Virus record (IMG/VR): IMGVR_UViG_2630968500_000005
Origin: a virus
Lineage: Duplodnaviria; Heunggongvirae; Uroviricota; Caudoviricetes
DNA: 10,132 bases
Strand: one strand, 5' to 3'
Below are positions 1 to 10,132 of this stretch, piece by piece. A model generated the notes under the pieces. The model did not search any database, was not told where the DNA came from, and saw only the letters and a program-made list of their open reading frames with translations. Positions within the stretch are counted from its first letter, which is position 1; each line of letters opens with the position of its first letter. A program made the translations under genes and the position numbers.

Positions 1-536
1 GAGGCGGTGCAATTTGCGCTATCGCGGTGATGATTACCATCGTGATGGGTAATGGCAATGTGCGAACCAACCAGGCGGGGCTTGAGCTTATCGGAAGCGC
101 TGAAGGTTGCCGACGTGATCCATACATGTGCCCGGCAGGGGTATGGACTGACGGGATCGGTAATACACACGGGGTAACGCCGGGTGTGCGAAAAACAGAC
201 CAGCAAATCGCCGCTGATTGGGAAAAGAATATCCTGATCGCTGAACGCTGTATTAACCAGCACTTCCGGGGCAAAGACATGCCCGATAATGCCTTCAGTG
301 CAATGACAAGCGCGGTATTCAATATGGGATGCAATAGCTTACGGACCTACTACAGCAAAGCGCGAGGCATGCGAGTAGAAACGTCCATCCACAAGTGGGC
401 GCAGAAAGGGGAATGGGTGAATATGTGTAACCATCTCCCTGATTTCGTGAACAGTAACGGCGTGCCCCTGCGAGGCTTAAAGATTCGCCGTGAAAAAGAA
501 CGCCAGCTTTGCCTGACGGGACTGGTCAATGAATAA
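1..536 (+). CDS. lyz: SAR endolysin (P1 Lyz-type lysozyme), 5'-partial; true start about 20 nt upstream of the window
   Basis: The frame is open from nt 3 and reads GGAICAIAVMITIVMGNGNVRTNQAGLELIGSAEGCRRDPYMCPAGVWTDGIGNTHG..., a Gly/Ala-rich weakly hydrophobic N-terminus (SAR domain) followed by a T4-lysozyme-like E-x8-C/D...T-D-G-I-G motif. Cys codons sit at 15-17, 108-110 and 129-131 and a Glu codon at 102-104, the spacing recalled for P1 Lyz Cys13/Glu42/Cys44/Cys51. Stop TAA at 534-536. The GTG at 27 used by the ORF track is an internal Val codon, not the start. Confidence 0.9.
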   Translation, partial: GGAICAIAVMITIVMGNGNVRTNQAGLELIGSAEGCRRDPYMCPAGVWTDGIGNTHGVTPGVRKTDQQIAADWEKNILIAERCINQHFRGKDMPDNAFSAMTSAVFNMGCNSLRTYYSKARGMRVETSIHKWAQKGEWVNMCNHLPDFVNSNGVPLRGLKIRREKERQLCLTGLVNE

Positions 537-783
537 ACTCCGGCAGCTCCGCCGACTTTCGACAATGAAGTTATCGCTGGCGGCGATAGTTTTCGACTCG
601 ATTTTCATGGCGGTATATGTGCTCAATGAGTCGTGGCCACTGGAACCGCTATTATATGCCGGGCTTCGGCTGTGCCTGACATTTTTGAGCATGGCTGCAA
701 GATTGATGCAGCAGAAAGAAACCGCTTCAGATTGTCCACGCCGCGCGGTGCGCAAATATATGGCACGCAGGCGAAAGCGATAA
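529..783 (+). CDS. hypothetical small membrane protein (84 aa, two predicted TM segments, strongly basic C-terminal tail); holin/pinholin-like topology, function unproven
   Basis: ATG at 529 overlaps the lyz stop (ATGAATAA), suggesting translational coupling. Hydrophobic stretches LSLAAIVFDSIFMAVYVL (about nt 574-628) and LLYAGLRLCLTFLSMAARLM (about nt 649-708), then tail RRAVRKYMARRRKR. Stop TAA at 781-783 sits 14 nt before an intrinsic terminator. Several rare Arg codons and no clear SD keep confidence low. Confidence 0.4.
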   Translation: MNKLRQLRRLSTMKLSLAAIVFDSIFMAVYVLNESWPLEPLLYAGLRLCLTFLSMAARLMQQKETASDCPRRAVRKYMARRRKR

Positions 784-796
784 TAGTTAACGATAC

Positions 797-822
797 CCCC
801 GGCAGCCGCCGGGGTTATTTTT
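797..822 (+). terminator. rho-independent terminator between convergent lysis and head genes
   Basis: Perfect 7-bp GC stem CCCCGGC (797-803) / GCCGGGG (808-814) with 4-nt loop AGCC, followed immediately by TTATTTTT (815-822). It lies 14 nt after the 529..783 stop and just past the pro stop (828-830) on the other strand, so it may act in both directions, with a weaker U-tract on the minus strand. Confidence 0.65.
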
Positions 823-827
823 GGTGG

Positions 828-3624
<2,797 letters not shown>

Positions 3625-6600
3625 ATGAACAAGCTATCTATGGGGGTGTTTCGCTGTTCAAGTGTCAGCGAAATATTGAAATACATTAGGGCAATAACAT
3701 CTCACCGAGCGCCGATTAGATACGGCGTGGAAAAGGTGGAAGGCAAAAGCTATGACCGACTACGCCGGGAGGCGAATCAGAAGGCGATAGATTTGCTTAA
3801 TTCGCTGGTGGACGGCGCGACACTGACAGATGAACAGCGCCAGATCCTGGCTGGGTACACCGGTGAAGGCGGCATTGGCGGGTCCGTCTCCGAATATTAC
3901 ACACCAAAGCCGATCGCTGAAGGTGTCTGGGAGATCATGAAGCTCTACGGCGCGGACGTAGGTAACACTCTGGAACCATCGGCGGGAACCGGCGTTTTTA
4001 ATGAGACAAAACCGGTTGGTACGGTGATGACCGCGACTGAGATCAGCAGTGTTTCCGGTCGTATAAACCAGTTGTTACACCCGGAAGACAGCGTACAGAT
4101 TTCCCCGTTCGAACAGCTGGCTATAAGCACGCCTAACGATTCATTCGACCATGTTGTGGGTAACGTTCCGTTCGGCGGTCGTGATAACACACGCAACATC
4201 GATAAGCCTTACGCAGAAGAAACGGACATGGGTTCTTACTTCATGCTCCGCATGCTGGACAAGATAAAGCCAGGCGGATTCATGTGCGTGATTGTGCCGC
4301 CGTCCATTGTTTCAGGTTCAAACATGAAGCGGTTACGCCTGCGCCTATCACGGAAAGCTGAATTTCTTGGTGCCCACCGCTTGCCTACCGGTACTTTTGA
4401 CGCAAACGGGACCAGTACGGTCGTTGACGTGGTGCTGATGCGCAAACATCCGGCGGAGATGGCTGAGAAAATCCCCCTGGTGGATGAAGGCACTCTTGAA
4501 TCGGCAAATGTGCTTTGGCCAACGTTTATTTCTGGCAAGTGGTTTGAAAAGGATGGCCGCCGGTTTGTTCATGGCACTCAGGAGAAGGGATTCCAGGGGC
4601 GTATTGAGGTTCGTGCCGACGGTCAGATTGATAACCAGGCTCTTAAAGCGAAGCTGATTCATCGTTTCGAAAGCCGTATCGACTGGTCTTTGCTCGATAT
4701 GGCTGAACCGTCACCGACCGCAGACGTTGTTGGTGAAGGGGAAATGCGCCTGATTAATGGTGTATGGCAAAAATATGCTGGTGGTCGCTGGATTGAAGCT
4801 GATGCCGGGAAGGAACTTAAGATCGATGCTGCCAGTTATGGCGCGGATAGCTGGGAGGCTCTTCAGCGTAACCTGACTACAACAGAAGGCCGTCTCGGCA
4901 TGACATTTACCCAGATGGCAAATGTCCGCGATAAGTACACCACATCAATCAGCGACGATATGGTGCAGCTGGTGGACTGGATTAACAGCCAGCCTGAAAA
5001 ATACCGTGAACGCTTGTATCGTGGGGCGATGATTGGCCGGATGTTAATTGAATATCAGGATATGAAGGCCGCCGGGCATAGTGCTGAACAAATCGAACAG
5101 CAGCGCCTTTCTCTGGTATCCCGTTTGCAGGCAGAGATTGACCGTTTTGGTAACCCCGGTCGCGGTCCGATAGCGAAATTATCGGGGAGCGGTGCGCGCG
5201 CCTGGTTTGCTTTCCGTGGTGCAATTAAGCTGGATGGCACTATTTCTGACGAGCTGACAGGAAAACTGGTTACGCATGATTCCAGCGCCAGTTATGACTC
5301 CACCAGCTATCAGGACACCCTGCGTTATCTCTACAGTGATCTCACTCGCGATCCAATCCAGCTCGATGATTTCCGCCTTGCGTTTACCGGCGAACTGCCA
5401 GCCAGTGATGACGAGTTGCTTAATTTATTGGCCAGCACCCCTGGTATTGCGGTTTCACCGTATGGCGGGATTGTTCCGTTCGCCCGCGCCACCAGCGGCG
5501 ACATTAACGAGATAGTAGCTCCAAAACAGGAATTCCTTGCCACACTCCCCGACGGTCCAGTAAAGAACAACGTCCTTAATCAGCTGGCAGCGATCGAAGA
5601 GAAGCGCATCAAGACGCCAGCAGAGAATATCCGGTTTAAGCTCAATAGCCGTTGGTTCGACCGTTCCGTCATTCTGGAATTTTTGCAGGAAAACGGCTAT
5701 CCGGATCTGCGCTATGTGCAGTCAGTGCAGCTGGAAGGCGACGAAATGGTTTCTGACACCTATCACGGTGGTGATGGTCTGTTCGTCGGGCACCGATACG
5801 GTGTCGTCCAGCGCAAGGATAAAGAAACAGGCGAGATCCGCTACGAGTGGGACCGTAAATCAGGTGAAAACGCGACCGGGTTCCCGGCACAACTGGAAAA
5901 GTATCTCAATGGTGCACGTATTGGTGGCAAAGATAGCGCGACGGCGAACGGCTACCGCGAGCAGATGGCACTGCTTGAGGACCAGTTCAATAAGTGGATC
6001 AAGACGCACGATCGCTACGATGAGCTGGTTGCCAAATACAACGATGTTTTCAATAGCAATATTCCGTATGAACATTCTGGCGATCCGCTTGGGTTGAAGG
6101 GATTAAGCGGTAAGCGCCAGCCATTTGATTACCAGAATAGCGAGGTGCGCCGACTGTCCGAAGATGGGCGCGGCATCCTGGGCTTCGGCACCGGGCTGGG
6201 TAAAACCACGACCGCGCTGGCGCTTGAGGCGTTCAACTATGAGAACGGTCGCTCCACCCGTACTGCGTATGTAGTGCCTAAATCAGTGCTGGAAAACTGG
6301 TATTACGAAGCAAAAGAATTCCTGAGTGAAGAGGCATTCAGTAACTACCTGTTCGTCGGTCTTGATGTGCTGATGGATGGCGATCAGATTCGCCAGGTGC
6401 CGGTGCTCGATGAGAACGGTAAACCTGTTCTTGGTACTGATGGCACTCCAGTTATGCGCGATGCCCTTAAACTGGCAGATGAAGCCACTATCACGGCGCG
6501 TATGAACGCGATCCCGCACTCAAATTACCGTGCAGTCGTGTTTACCAAAGAACAATACGCCCGCATTCCGCTACGTGATGACACCGTAGATGAGCATGCA

Positions 6601-9600
6601 CAGGATATGCTTTATGACTTCGTTGCTGCCGGGCGCGTAGCCAGCGCAATGAACTCCGACTCCCACCGCAAAGAGGCCGCGCGTCGCCGGGTATTGTCGG
6701 AGTATTCAGATACCGGTACCGAAAAAGCAGAGAAGTATCCGTACTTTGAGGATATGGGCTTCGACAGCGTGATTGCTGACGAAGGCCACAACTACCGCAA
6801 TAGCTATAAAAATGGTCGCGAAGCGTCACAGCTGGCCTATCTGCCCACCAGCGCGGTGGCGCAATCGGCGCGAGATATGGCAATCAAAAACGCGTACCTG
6901 ATGAAAAAGAATGGCGGGCGCGGGCCGGTTCTCCTGACTGCAACGCCAGTCGTTAACACTCCGATCGATGCATACAACATGCTTTCTCATGTTCTGCCGA
7001 AGGAATACTGGCAGAAGATGGGGATCTACGGTCCTGATGACTTCGTTAAATTCTTCGGCAAGACCAGGCTGGAAACGGTACAGAAAATCAGCGGTGAAGT
7101 TGAAGAAAAAATGGCGCTGGTGGGCTTTGAAAACCTTGATGCGCTGCGCGGCATATTCCATCGCTGGACAACGCTTAAAACGGCGGAAGACGTTAAGGAT
7201 ACCGTGGAGATCCCGGAGCTGGACGAACACCAGCAGGATGCACCACTTACTGAAGAACAACTGGCGGCGTATGAAGAATTACGCCAGCAGGCGGAAGCGG
7301 CGGCCAAAGCCAACAATGGCGTAACGACCTCGGTCGATGAAGACGGAGTGATTGAGCACGAGAAAGCCCGTCCGATCTTCTCAATAATCAGGGATATGGA
7401 CCGCGTATGTACTGACATGGACCTGTACTATCGCCGGATCACCTATCGTTTCCTGCCGGAGTACGCCGATGCAGTGCAGCAACTGGCGGACAGTTTGCCT
7501 AAACAAGCCACCAGCGAAGACGACGACAGTGATGATTCAATCACGCAGCAATCGCAATACTCCCTGATAGATAAGGGCGAGTTTATTCAGTTGCAGGTTC
7601 CGGAAGCGTTTGAGCAGGAAGTGAATAAGCGCCTGGCCAGGTTTGGCATTGACGAACAGACCGTAACTCACCCCGTTACACCCAAATACGCGAAGCTGAT
7701 CGCCACGCTGAAGGAGTTTTTCCCGGAAGGTAAGCAAATCATCTTCACGGACGAAAAAACGCAGCACCAGAAGCTCAAGCGCATTATCTGCAATGCTCTT
7801 AACCTTGAACCTTCAAAGGTGGGGATCCTGAATGCTCAGACGGTTGCCGAGGCAGGTAAAACCGGTAAGAAACTGAAAGCGGTTAAACCGCCGAAAGAGT
7901 TACCGGATGAACCAACAGATGCACAGATAGCGAAATACAACGAGCAAATGGCTCTGTATGACGCCTATATCGCGCAGCAAAATGAAATGTCGTTGGGCGG
8001 TCTGGAAAAGATTGCAGCCGACTTCCAGGAGGGCCGGACTCCGATCATCATCTGCAACAAAAAGGCAGAGGTGGGTATCAACCTGCATCGAGGAACGACG
8101 GATATCCACCACCTGACGTTGCCGTGGACTCCAGCCAGTATCGCACAACGTAACGGTCGCGGTGCCCGAGTTGGCTCCAACCGTGCAAGCGTTCGCGTTC
8201 ATTACTACTGCGGCAAGGGGTCTTTCGATGAATACCGACTGAAGACGCTGAAGCGTAAAGCAGGCTGGATCTCCGATATCCTCCGTTCAGATAAGTCAGA
8301 AATGGAGAACGCCGATGCCAACGATATGATCGAAATGCAGATGTATACCGCTAAGGATGATGGCGAACGTCTGGCAATGATGCAGGTTCAAATGGATAAG
8401 GCGAAAGCCGCGCAACGCGCTCGCCAGAAAGAACAGGCTACTATCGACCTTCAGAACTACATCAAGGCGCAGCACGCAGCTGGCGAGGATGTGGAGGTAC
8501 TTACCGCTGAATTAGAGCGAAACAAAGCGGAACTTGAAAAGACCACCGCCGAGGTAGCTAAATTCAAACAGGCGGCAATGGCCAAAGCAGCTGATAACGC
8601 AGACTGGAAGACCCGCTGGGGTAGCGTCCATCACACAGACCGTACGTTGTTAGCACAGTATCGCGCGTCGTTGAAAAGCGCCATTCAGCGCAAGGCTAAT
8701 ATCTCTCAAGCCATCTCCCGCTATGAGAAATTATTGAACCGTACTCAGAAGGCCGCGACGGATATCAAACGCCTGCGCCCGCTGGTGGAGGATGCAATAA
8801 ATAAAGGCATTCTGGATGTTGATCCTGATCTGGTTAACCATGCGAGTGAGTTCCTTGTTATCGGCGATCGCTCATGGCGTGTAGGCCAATACTACGATTG
8901 TGCCGGTGATATCGTTCGCATTAAGTCGCTGGACTTCGACAGCCAGCGCGCAGACGTGGAGATCATCTTTACCTTCAAAGGCACCAAATCGGGTAACTGG
9001 GATGTGAAGACGCTGGATAAACAGGTAGATGTGACTCCCGATGAAGATGCTGTTATGCAGAAAATCAGTGGTGGCGTCTCCATCGCCGGGATTAACGGCA
9101 TCATTTCCTGTGACGATTTCTACCGTTTCCAGCAGCGCGGCATGATCAAAATCACTGACTCATACGGCGTTCAGACTACAGAGTCAGGCTATAGCATTGA
9201 TTTTGTTGGTACCTATACGGACCCACTGAAGCATGCGGTTTACCCGGATCGCCGTGACGGCGCGCTGAAGTCGTCAATTGCTAAATGGGTGCTTGGTATG
9301 ATGTCGGAAGGGAATAACCGCCAGGTCCGTTTGGCAGAAGTATTCCTGACTGAACTGTTTGGCTCCAATTATAGCGATGTAATCGCGTCATACGGAGATA
9401 CGTTATCCCCTGAAGCAATTCAGGAGAAAATAGCGGATGCGATCGCCAGAATGCCGGAGAAAACAAGCCAGGGGGCTACTCGTAACGGGGATTCTGAACT
9501 TGAGATCACCAATGCCATTTTCGGTACCAATGAGTTCCGGGCGTCAGATTTTGAGGTCACCACAGCACAGTTTGGCCCCATTGGCATTTACAGCAATAAA

Positions 9601-10098
9601 GACGAGATCAAGCAGGCAATGGACGCAGCAAGCGCGCGCATTGCAGCAGAACGGAAAGCCAATCTGAATCATGCAGTCGCCGCGCTGACTCAATCGTGGG
9701 TAACAGCAATCAGGGAGGCCGCCACCACAGGGAAAATCACACCGGCAATTGCGGATGTCGTAAACAACGGCTCTAAATTTATGGATGCCTATCAAATGGA
9801 TGCGGTGCAGTTGCCATCAGCCTATGGCCAACTCAGCTATCGCATGACCTACAACCTGGTATCAATGTTTATCATTGACGTCATGTTTCCGGGCCAGTGC
9901 GGCAATACTGCCTTCTTCTTCAAGAGCCAGCCTGACCAGTTCCATTTTGAATTCAGGGGAATAGTGTTTCCGGGGAAGTCTTTCTTTAGCGCGCATGAGG
10001 TGTCCACCTGCAAAATAAGTGGGTGCTTAAGTTACAGGATCCTGGATTCGGGACCAGACGGTACTCAGACGACGCTTACCTGTGTTGTTCTAAGGTGA
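3625..10098 (+). CDS. darB: DarB-like antirestriction protein: N-terminal N6-adenine DNA methyltransferase-like domain plus SF2 helicase core; 3' end appears IS-disrupted (native coding probably ends near 9870)
   Basis: ATG at 3625 with SD AAGGA 6 nt upstream. MTase motifs: TPKP (3901-3912), motif I LEPSAGTGVF (3970-3999), motif IV-like NVPF (4162-4173). Helicase motifs: Walker A GLGKTT (6196-6213), DEGH (6778-6789), TATP (6937-6948), motif VI QRNGRGAR (8146-8169). Acidic cluster SEDDDSDDS (about 7513-7539) and a coiled-coil region (about 8370-8620). A giant MTase-helicase fusion next to prt/pro/lyz matches P1 DarB. The last ~75 codons (about 9874-10098) are the antisense of an IS3-family OrfA fragment and are unlikely to be native. 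Confidence 0.85.
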   Translation: MNKLSMGVFRCSSVSEILKYIRAITSHRAPIRYGVEKVEGKSYDRLRREANQKAIDLLNSLVDGATLTDEQRQILAGYTGEGGIGGSVSEYYTPKPIAEGVWEIMKLYGADVGNTLEPSAGTGVFNETKPVGTVMTATEISSVSGRINQLLHPEDSVQISPFEQLAISTPNDSFDHVVGNVPFGGRDNTRNIDKPYAEETDMGSYFMLRMLDKIKPGGFMCVIVPPSIVSGSNMKRLRLRLSRKAEFLGAHRLPTGTFDANGTSTVVDVVLMRKHPAEMAEKIPLVDEGTLESANVLWPTFISGKWFEKDGRRFVHGTQEKGFQGRIEVRADGQIDNQALKAKLIHRFESRIDWSLLDMAEPSPTADVVGEGEMRLINGVWQKYAGGRWIEADAGKELKIDAASYGADSWEALQRNLTTTEGRLGMTFTQMANVRDKYTTSISDDMVQLVDWINSQPEKYRERLYRGAMIGRMLIEYQDMKAAGHSAEQIEQQRLSLVSRLQAEIDRFGNPGRGPIAKLSGSGARAWFAFRGAIKLDGTISDELTGKLVTHDSSASYDSTSYQDTLRYLYSDLTRDPIQLDDFRLAFTGELPASDDELLNLLASTPGIAVSPYGGIVPFARATSGDINEIVAPKQEFLATLPDGPVKNNVLNQLAAIEEKRIKTPAENIRFKLNSRWFDRSVILEFLQENGYPDLRYVQSVQLEGDEMVSDTYHGGDGLFVGHRYGVVQRKDKETGEIRYEWDRKSGENATGFPAQLEKYLNGARIGGKDSATANGYREQMALLEDQFNKWIKTHDRYDELVAKYNDVFNSNIPYEHSGDPLGLKGLSGKRQPFDYQNSEVRRLSEDGRGILGFGTGLGKTTTALALEAFNYENGRSTRTAYVVPKSVLENWYYEAKEFLSEEAFSNYLFVGLDVLMDGDQIRQVPVLDENGKPVLGTDGTPVMRDALKLADEATITARMNAIPHSNYRAVVFTKEQYARIPLRDDTVDEHAQDMLYDFVAAGRVASAMNSDSHRKEAARRRVLSEYSDTGTEKAEKYPYFEDMGFDSVIADEGHNYRNSYKNGREASQLAYLPTSAVAQSARDMAIKNAYLMKKNGGRGPVLLTATPVVNTPIDAYNMLSHVLPKEYWQKMGIYGPDDFVKFFGKTRLETVQKISGEVEEKMALVGFENLDALRGIFHRWTTLKTAEDVKDTVEIPELDEHQQDAPLTEEQLAAYEELRQQAEAAAKANNGVTTSVDEDGVIEHEKARPIFSIIRDMDRVCTDMDLYYRRITYRFLPEYADAVQQLADSLPKQATSEDDDSDDSITQQSQYSLIDKGEFIQLQVPEAFEQEVNKRLARFGIDEQTVTHPVTPKYAKLIATLKEFFPEGKQIIFTDEKTQHQKLKRIICNALNLEPSKVGILNAQTVAEAGKTGKKLKAVKPPKELPDEPTDAQIAKYNEQMALYDAYIAQQNEMSLGGLEKIAADFQEGRTPIIICNKKAEVGINLHRGTTDIHHLTLPWTPASIAQRNGRGARVGSNRASVRVHYYCGKGSFDEYRLKTLKRKAGWISDILRSDKSEMENADANDMIEMQMYTAKDDGERLAMMQVQMDKAKAAQRARQKEQATIDLQNYIKAQHAAGEDVEVLTAELERNKAELEKTTAEVAKFKQAAMAKAADNADWKTRWGSVHHTDRTLLAQYRASLKSAIQRKANISQAISRYEKLLNRTQKAATDIKRLRPLVEDAINKGILDVDPDLVNHASEFLVIGDRSWRVGQYYDCAGDIVRIKSLDFDSQRADVEIIFTFKGTKSGNWDVKTLDKQVDVTPDEDAVMQKISGGVSIAGINGIISCDDFYRFQQRGMIKITDSYGVQTTESGYSIDFVGTYTDPLKHAVYPDRRDGALKSSIAKWVLGMMSEGNNRQVRLAEVFLTELFGSNYSDVIASYGDTLSPEAIQEKIADAIARMPEKTSQGATRNGDSELEITNAIFGTNEFRASDFEVTTAQFGPIGIYSNKDEIKQAMDAASARIAAERKANLNHAVAALTQSWVTAIREAATTGKITPAIADVVNNGSKFMDAYQMDAVQLPSAYGQLSYRMTYNLVSMFIIDVMFPGQCGNTAFFFKSQPDQFHFEFRGIVFPGKSFFSAHEVSTCKISGCLSYRILDSGPDGTQTTLTCVVLR
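9862..9996 (-). pseudogene. truncated IS3-family transposase OrfA (N-terminal HTH fragment, 44 codons)
   Basis: Direct translation of the reverse complement of 9862-9996 gives 44 residues with the IS3-family OrfA HTH signature, then a premature stop where homology to darB resumes. Too short to be functional. Confidence 0.45.
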
Positions 10099-10132
10099 GC
10101 ATATCACCTCTGTTCAGGTGGCCAAATTCAGT
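9874..10132 (-). mobile_element. IS3-family insertion sequence remnant (left end plus 5' part of transposase OrfA), abutting or truncating darB
   Basis: The minus strand encodes MRAKERLPRKHYSPEFKMELVRLALEEEGSIAALARKHDVN from ATG at 9996-9994, a close match to the helix-turn-helix pattern of IS3/IS911-type OrfA (..R.YS.EFK.E.V.L....G.S...AR...V.). The match stops abruptly near 9874, after which the frame hits TGA (9864-9862) and the sequence is darB-like. The outer terminus is probably near 10112-10116 (RC TGAAC...) or beyond the window. Boundaries are approximate. Confidence 0.5.

Follow-up and report, generated by a model that had tools for sequence, protein, structure and literature searches.

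The subject of this analysis is a long open reading frame (ORF) in a stretch of 10,132 nucleotides filed under Caudoviricetes (IMG/VR record IMGVR_UViG_2630968500_000005), which we refer to as the window. We read this ORF, with a probability of about 0.87, as a truncated and chimeric allele of darB, the gene for the antirestriction protein DarB of phage P1, carried on a P1-derived plasmid of Escherichia coli strain G5, where it is a decaying remnant that no longer provides virion-delivered antirestriction. The frame follows P1 darB until it crosses into an insertion sequence (IS) of the IS66 family, and the missing end of the gene lies elsewhere on the same plasmid. An earlier note, made from the letters of the sequence without database searches, had described the ORF as a methyltransferase-helicase fusion with DarB architecture.

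The ORF follows P1 darB through codon 2082

The window has a single ORF at 3625..10098 on the + strand, with an ATG start and 2,157 codons, close to the ~2,100 codons that the earlier note had given. The chance of 2,157 uninterrupted sense codons is ~(61/64)^2157, or ~1e-45. Against phage records, a megablast search with the complete window found 98.2% identity to phage P1 across nt 1-9870. In the protein, residues 1-2082 align with P1 DarB without a gap, with 2054/2082 identities (98.7%) and 28 substitutions, and the ORF scores 3761 bits against PHROG_1685. Judged by its sequence, the ORF is darB itself, an orthologue in a P1-derived element, and not just a gene of DarB-like architecture; the architecture proposed in the earlier note was understated. 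The parts of the frame that belong to darB are as follows (aa, amino acid; AF2, AlphaFold2).

3625..9870, + strand: darB codons 1-2082 of 2255 (5′ 92% of the gene), from identity with P1 and PHROG_1685 positions 1-2099 of 2278
3625..3714, + strand: N-terminal sequence for capsid targeting (aa 1-30), the same in P1 DarB
3880..4494, + strand: predicted DNA methyltransferase module (aa ~86-290) of the gamma N6-adenine class, containing a TP motif, motif I and NVPF as motif IV
4495..6114, + strand: DarB-family linker (aa 291-830), predicted to be folded and mostly helical with two small beta modules, from AF2 and the family alignment
6121..8304, + strand: predicted SNF2-type superfamily 2 (SF2) ATPase/translocase (aa 833-1560) with a large inter-lobe insert containing an acidic run, from Pfam and alignments
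8305..9870, + strand: C-terminal region specific to the DarB family (aa 1561-2082), rich in helices at aa ~1565-1727 and cut at aa 2082

The catalytic motifs within it are at these positions.

TPKP, aa 93-96, nt 3901-3912
LEPSAGTGVF, aa 116-125, nt 3970-3999
NVPF, aa 180-183, nt 4162-4173
GLGKTT, aa 857-862, nt 6193-6210
DEGH, aa 1052-1055, nt 6778-6789
TATP, aa 1105-1108, nt 6937-6948
QRNGRGAR, aa 1508-1515, nt 8146-8169

Five Pfam families match the ORF above their gathering scores: N6_Mtase (aa 145-290), Eco57I, SNF2-rel_dom (849-911), ResIII (833-904) and Helicase_C (1455-1517). In an alignment of the methyltransferase module with the EcoKI M subunit, YYTPKP falls on YFTPRP, LEPSAGTGVF on QDPAAGTAGF and NVPF on NPPF, which gives the order expected of a gamma-class N6-adenine methyltransferase: TP (motif X), then FxGxG (I), then (N/D)PP(Y/F) (IV), on a Rossmann-type core. 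In the helicase region (aa 833-1560), GLGKT falls on motif I, LLTATPV on motif III and QRNGRGARVG on motif VI of SsoRad54 and of SMARCAD1-type SNF2 ATPases, and INO80 is also among the aligned relatives. With motif II, the Pfam matches and alignments place all of motifs I, II, III and VI on two RecA-like lobes, as in SNF2-type SF2 ATPases. Both motif sets named in the earlier note were thus located at the catalytic positions of EcoKI M, SsoRad54 and SMARCAD1, and neither an absence of similarity to DarB or to the profiles nor a displacement of the motifs was found. Its acidic and coiled-coil segments, placed after the helicase, held only in part: the acidic run SEDDDSDDS (aa 1297-1305) lies within the helicase, between its two lobes, and what follows the helicase is the helix-rich segment at aa ~1565-1727. 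No nuclease or HsdS family was matched in Pfam and NCBIfam scans of the ORF translation.

Ahead of the methyltransferase, GEGGIGGS at aa 80-87 provides a GxG(G/A/S) motif, in which, across a 21-sequence alignment, G80 never varies and G82 and G83 hardly do, and the AF2 model has N-terminal helices at residues 14-25, 43-60 and 69-76. This predicted helical domain with its glycine motif is what would be expected at the start of an LPD36-methyltransferase-SNF2 protein.

A reciprocal junction with an IS66-family element

P1 homology ends at nt 9870, whereas P1 DarB extends to residue 2255. The ORF matches PHROG_1685 (2,278 positions) only up to position 2099, and the last 173 residues of P1 DarB match positions 2100-2278. 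The ORF is therefore short of a full-length DarB of ~2,255 aa with the C-terminal tail of the family. The earlier note had taken the frame as intact; instead, those 173 residues are swapped for 75 antisense IS66 codons. The features at this end of the window are as follows.

9869..9870, unstranded: recombination breakpoint at a TT microhomology common to darB and IS66 tnpA, from comparison of the junctions
9871..10098, + strand: foreign tail of 75 codons and a stop (228 nt, codons 2083-2157), not darB and with no counterpart in P1 DarB
9871..10081, - strand: left-end fragment of an IS66-family element, with a GTAAGCG terminal repeat at ~10073-10079 and the first 42 tnpA codons running from 9996 down to 9871
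10078..10132, unstranded: IS911-like (IS3-family) end piece that hosts the IS66 element, a 98% match to IS911-annotated sequence in Shigella phages Sf6 and SfII

The tail is an antisense read-through of the left end of the IS66-family element, and its stop codon (TGA, 10096-10098) lies just beyond the IS end, inside the short IS911-like piece. Translated on the minus strand, the fragment gives MRAKERLPRKHYSPEFKMELV..., which is matched by NCBIfam models of IS66 TnpA; 213 bp are shared at 100% identity with a copy in CP035634 that is annotated as IS66, and RefSeq names matching sequence tnpA in other genomes. The ORF is thus chimeric, with 2,082 codons from darB and 75 that are meaningless.

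Read across the origin of its record, NZ_CP060066.1, a 148,192-bp plasmid of E. coli strain G5, contains the window at 100% identity. On that plasmid, darB codons 2083-2255, followed by ulx and lxc, occupy positions 72789-71547, in the same orientation as the 5′ piece and 69 kb away from it. Directly beside the 3′ piece is the rest of that IS66 element, 2,228 bp that include tnpB and tnpC, so that counting this part the element has the terminal GTAAGCG repeat, then tnpA, tnpB and tnpC, of an IS66. RefSeq flags the 3′ piece as a pseudogene, 'darB domain protein, missing N-terminus'. At the breakpoint P1 reads ..ATCAATGTTTTCCGACC.. and the intact IS66 ..GCAGGTTATCATTGACG...; the window junction reads ..ATCAATGTTTATCATTGACG.. 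and the reciprocal junction, at plasmid 72789/72790, ..GCAGGTTTCCGACC... Comparison of all four shows that the two junctions are exactly reciprocal and conservative, with zero bases gained or lost. An exchange of this kind at the TT, between darB codons 2082/2083 and IS66-family tnpA codons 42/43, has split the gene.

Among 5,426 complete E. coli genomes the darB/IS66 junction was found in one, G5 itself, and because of this rarity it appears recent. Simple insertion of an IS into darB was rejected because the junction falls within tnpA and not at the IS end, and inversion was rejected because both darB pieces have the same orientation. A simple cointegrate was also considered, but the non-P1 cyclic order of the three retained P1 segments demands further rearrangements; more than one rearrangement must therefore have occurred.

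RefSeq starts an 'N-6 DNA methylase' coding sequence at codon 38 (GTG), leaving out window positions 3625-3735 (plasmid 148117-148006). This start loses the capsid-targeting residues 1-30, and the 5′ piece is not flagged as a pseudogene, whereas the 3′ piece is.

Among P1-like viral contigs, darB is an ORF of 2,253-2,258 aa in 73 of 79, is shortened in five and runs off the contig in one. The shortened ORFs, in IMG/VR contigs L033, L056, L062, L069 and L077, are of 162, 1628, 17, 1902 and 1498 aa, respectively. Those in L033 and L077 result from nonsense substitutions and those in L056, L062 and L069 from single-base indels, any of which could be sequencing errors; L069 additionally loses P1 homology past nt 5677. 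Fragments of darB also make up many clusters in the protein database, a 683-aa product on 84 contigs among them. A break by rearrangement, as in the window, is the rarer kind among broken darB genes.

The carrier plasmid has lost most of P1

The G5 plasmid retains 34.3 of the 88.4 kb of a P1 genome (38.9%) and has lost 61%. The P1 genes kept are lxc, ulx, darB, prt, pro, lyz, ssb, 21-23 and pmgS, together with phd/doc, lpa, pacAB, c1, cre and ref. Coverage of darA, hdf, ddrA and ddrB is 0% on the plasmid, the G5 chromosome not having been searched, and of the five Dar partners that P1 holds in one element (these four and ulx) ulx is the sole one on the plasmid. By coverage against P1, the plasmid also has no tail fibre, baseplate, tube or tape-measure genes (S, R, bplA, sit and tub among them), and gp5/6/7/24/25/26, repL, ban and dmt are absent from it as well. 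The only other G5 plasmid seen, of 35.9 kb, looks unrelated.

Between the darB halves, the 69 kb form a mosaic in which IS3, IS26, ISKpn26, IS903B and members of the Tn3 family are mixed with fragments of an IncA/C backbone (mobI, beside mobH), with dcuB/dcuR and other chromosomal cargo, and with some stretches of P1. P1-like plasmids are known to arise from phage-plasmids through gene loss (Pfeifer and Rocha 2024, PMC10879196). Like the plasmids of that study, the G5 plasmid keeps P1 replication, lysogeny and some structural genes, cannot complete the phage cycle, and is laden with IS and cargo; it is one particular instance of the kind of plasmid described there from a set of 38. The carrier is most likely a phage-plasmid turned cargo plasmid.

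Several observations on the plasmid stand beside this. Chromosomal-type cargo in regions L002-L004 (plasmid 4-70 kb for L003/L004) includes ompC, lacIZY, the fecIRABCDE operon, dcuB/dcuR, torD, uspF and agp, and the plasmid also holds an 11-kb gene for a protein with Ig-like domains together with a TolC/HlyD-type export set. Among the cargo lie more than 20 IS copies, and PLSDB types the plasmid as IncHI1B and non-mobilizable. Next to phd/doc lie hsdM, of a type I restriction-modification (R-M) system, and a short hsdS, with an ISKpn26 copy between the two genes (L004 37078-41039; plasmid 87078-91039). Type I R-M genes here share a plasmid with darB, a gene for defence against type I restriction. 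hsdR is not in the gene table.

The linker and C-terminal region belong to the DarB family

The earlier note had remarked on about 500 unassigned residues between the two modules, and the linker indeed comprises ~540 residues with no Pfam match. In 20 distant full-length homologues it has 23-37% identity and ~97% occupancy, and its AF2 model has pLDDT (predicted local distance difference test) values mostly of 80-93. A structure search gave no fold match past the methyltransferase core, and thus none for the linker.

Scanned exhaustively by HMMER with C-terminal residues aa 1541-2082, 1.84 billion cluster representatives yielded just 59 proteins, and the full-length ones among them, of 2,024-2,316 aa, match at the same relative position. 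The C-terminal region is specific to the DarB family because its matches are confined to DarB-sized proteins at that position. Pfam searches at E <= 1 with the first 100 aa, with the linker, with the C-terminal region and with the last 173 aa of P1 DarB gave only sub-threshold noise, namely matches to Lipase_chap and Par3_HAL_N_term that both fell under the cut-off. Homologue searches with the C-terminal region and the linker retrieved almost only near-identical or fragmentary P1-like darB products, too shallow a set for modelling, and an AF2 model of the last 462 aa of DarB (12 sequences) had a pLDDT of 40.6 and was unusable.

The SNF2 motifs are invariant or near-invariant in 21 family members, and all catalytic motifs are conserved in ~20 distant collinear homologues of 2,024-2,316 aa. 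In methyltransferase motif IV (P1 aa 180-183) the divergent DarB-family proteins have NVPF in 17/21, NPP(Y/F) in 3/21 and NAPF in 1/21, and NVPF is a family-typical departure from the canonical (N/D)PP(Y/F). Because the motifs are kept in ~20 distant members, this conservation argues that the predicted methyltransferase and SNF2 activities are both under selection in the family.

The adenine methyltransferase-SWI2/SNF2 dyad with LPD36 (PMC5512222), of which DarB is the archetype, has the same domain order, the TP motif, N(P/V)P(F/Y) and an SNF2-type ATPase. Nothing in DarB differs in kind from that dyad; the family adds the ~540-aa linker and a C-terminal region of ~700 aa, both limited to ~20 clusters of ~2,250-aa proteins. 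More distant comparisons are the type ISP and type I R-M systems (LlaBIII/LlaGI; EcoKI HsdM): DarB has no detected nuclease or HsdS-type recognition subunit, its order is methyltransferase and then motor, and its known role is counter-defence and not defence. Structurally, just the methyltransferase core matches, and the ORF does not fall within these systems.

Neighbouring genes, promoters and Chi sites

The remaining features of the window lie upstream of darB.

1..848, + strand: lysis genes lyz (3′ part, 1-536), lydD (529-783) and lydE (633-848), from P1 annotation and PHROG endolysin/holin matches
828..1847, - strand: pro, head-processing or prohead protease gene, from P1 annotation and a PHROG_1801 match
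1840..3549, - strand: prt, portal protein, from P1 annotation and PHROG_1497 portal (E = 1e-260)
3539..3610: divergent promoter region, by transfer of P1 annotation, with the predicted sigma-70 promoter PdarB on the + strand (-35 at 3539-3544, -10 at 3564-3569) and the late promoter LPpro on the - strand (3592-3610)
Chi sites, + strand: 1413, 3804, 4777, 4968, 7116, 8781
Chi sites, - strand: 1468, 3336, 5300, 5489, 6845, 7508

The genes prt, pro, lyz, lydD and lydE are in P1 order within the window, and darB is divergent from the portal and protease genes prt and pro as in P1 and as had been noted earlier from the sequence. In the order lxc-ulx-darB / prt-pro, the prt-pro side is P1-like and the ulx-lxc side has shifted with the darB 3′ remnant. 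Around the divergent promoters, one base in 101 nt departs from P1, and it lies outside the hexamers. lydD and lydE, the putative holin and antiholin, overlap out of frame as in the P1 annotation, and lydD overlaps the end of lyz by 8 nt.

The product of pro is named prohead protease in the P1 virion proteome paper (PMC9024508). It carries the label 'tail fiber' in PHROG_1801 and several RefSeq phage records, and this 'tail fiber protein' label is likely a propagated misannotation.

The window has 12 Chi sites (GCTGGTGG) in 10.1 kb, versus ~0.4 expected from base composition. P1 darB has 11 (PMC11109961), of which the truncated gene retains nine. The window has zero EcoKI sites and three EcoBI sites.

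Discussion

The layout of DarB is known from P1, and comprises a capsid-targeting signal, LPD36, a gamma-class N6-adenine methyltransferase, the linker, an SNF2-type translocase and the C-terminal region. The protein, of 2,255 aa and ~250 kDa, is internal to the head at ~40 copies per P1 virion, and its N-terminal 30 residues suffice to target a reporter to P1 capsids (PMC9024508). The earlier note had suggested capsid targeting by the linker or the C-terminal region; this need not be so, given that signal in P1, which is identical here. DarB is loaded into the procapsid after Hdf/DarA, DdrA and DdrB (PMC12810830), and Ulx helps its localisation (PMC12810830; PMC9024508). It protects only co-packaged DNA, in cis, from EcoB and EcoK (PMC12707154). 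A link between the Dar proteins and head morphogenesis has been published for P1 (Piya 2017, as cited in PMC12810830; PMC9024508). The same link, drawn in the earlier note from the position of the gene, agrees with this P1 biology; it is not new, and on this plasmid the phage context is largely gone. The gene, its architecture, its packaging into virions and its link to head morphogenesis were all already known from P1.

In P1, DarB is ejected with the DNA and protects that DNA in cis from type I restriction by EcoB and EcoK. The model of a methyltransferase-SNF2 dyad comes from the domain pair (Iyer et al. 2017, PMC5512222), from which the SNF2 motor would carry an EcoKI/TaqI-like adenine methyltransferase along the entering duplex. 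The methyltransferase module could then modify or occlude the entering DNA, such that type I complexes cannot finish translocation-dependent cleavage. We consider this motor-plus-methyltransferase model the most likely mechanism of DarB.

P1 DarB (AAQ13985.1; Punavirus P1, also P7, RCS47, SJ46 and JL22) and the window allele have in common the N-terminal signal, the methyltransferase and SNF2 motifs, the promoter region and the divergent prt-pro. The window allele differs in lacking residues 2083-2255, with 75 unrelated residues in their place. Further, ulx and lxc are downstream of darB in P1 but 69 kb off here, and P1 has darA, hdf, ddrA, ddrB and its virion genes, whereas the host plasmid is without those four and most virion genes. 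Without its tail, unlinked from ulx, with no packaging partners beside it and on an element that can build no virion, the allele would probably be inert for antirestriction.

Some observations weigh against this reading. This copy still has an intact promoter, start codon and capsid-targeting signal as well as every catalytic motif, and a ~240-kDa protein might still be produced, perhaps with enzymatic activity. The last 173 residues are the part least conserved across the DarB family, with 17% identity and 85% occupancy. A second P1-like element on the G5 chromosome could supply Dar partners and virions, and the structure of the plasmid rests on a single public assembly. The molecular mechanism of DarB has itself been termed 'not defined', and plasmid-borne darB DNA alleviates EcoKI restriction through its Chi and EcoKI sites independently of the protein (PMC11109961); functional claims for DarB are therefore complicated.

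It could be supposed that the truncated DarB is still useful and kept by selection, as an orphan methyltransferase/translocase within the cell or as a modulator of type I restriction in trans. The 6.2-kb frame has no internal stop or frameshift, its 28 substitutions spare every motif, and the region around the promoter is conserved as well. Plasmid-borne darB DNA rich in Chi, of which nine of 11 P1 sites remain here, can trigger restriction alleviation (PMC11109961). An intact frame is also expected after a break as recent as a junction in 1/5,426 genomes implies, however, the known action of DarB is in cis and from the virion (PMC12707154), the effect of cloned darB in PMC11109961 was independent of the protein, and the window has no EcoKI site; we consider this explanation unlikely. 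Its more specific form, in which DarB aa 1-2082 with the 75-aa IS-derived tail would be exapted to modulate type I restriction by methylation or translocation independently of virions, is less likely still.

The two remaining alternatives concern the integrity of the gene. That the darB/IS66 junction is an artefact of assembly and the true molecule has an intact darB is hardly credible. The many repeated IS copies in the record (IS26, IS1, ISKpn26, IS903B, IS3 and IS66) can mislead assemblers, and the three retained P1 segments are out of P1 order, but both reciprocal junctions are present with every base conserved, the breakpoints join unique darB sequence to the interior of an IS and not to a repeat boundary, where misjoins arise, and RefSeq independently marks the 3′ remnant as a partial gene. 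A viable P1-like phage whose DarB is an intact, functional variant ending in an alternative C-terminus would fit one long ORF with the DarB N-terminal signal and all motifs, yet this reading is effectively refuted: the alternative C-terminus is antisense IS66 and the authentic tail is elsewhere on the same plasmid, 61% of P1 is missing, including all tail genes and the Dar partners darA, hdf, ddrA and ddrB, and the plasmid, at 148 kb, is far over the ~94-kb P1 genome.

We therefore retain the reading of a truncated darB on a decaying P1-derived plasmid. Its importance is small beyond correct annotation, under which the ORF should be a disrupted darB (pseudogene) rather than an intact 'N-6 DNA methylase'. 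The puzzle posed by the linker (~540 aa) and the C-terminal region (~700 aa) is a property of P1 DarB generally and not a discovery of this window. The G5 plasmid would be another example of a P1-like phage-plasmid decaying to a cargo plasmid, and the window allele is a natural C-terminal deletion of DarB that could be used to probe the role of the last 173 residues.

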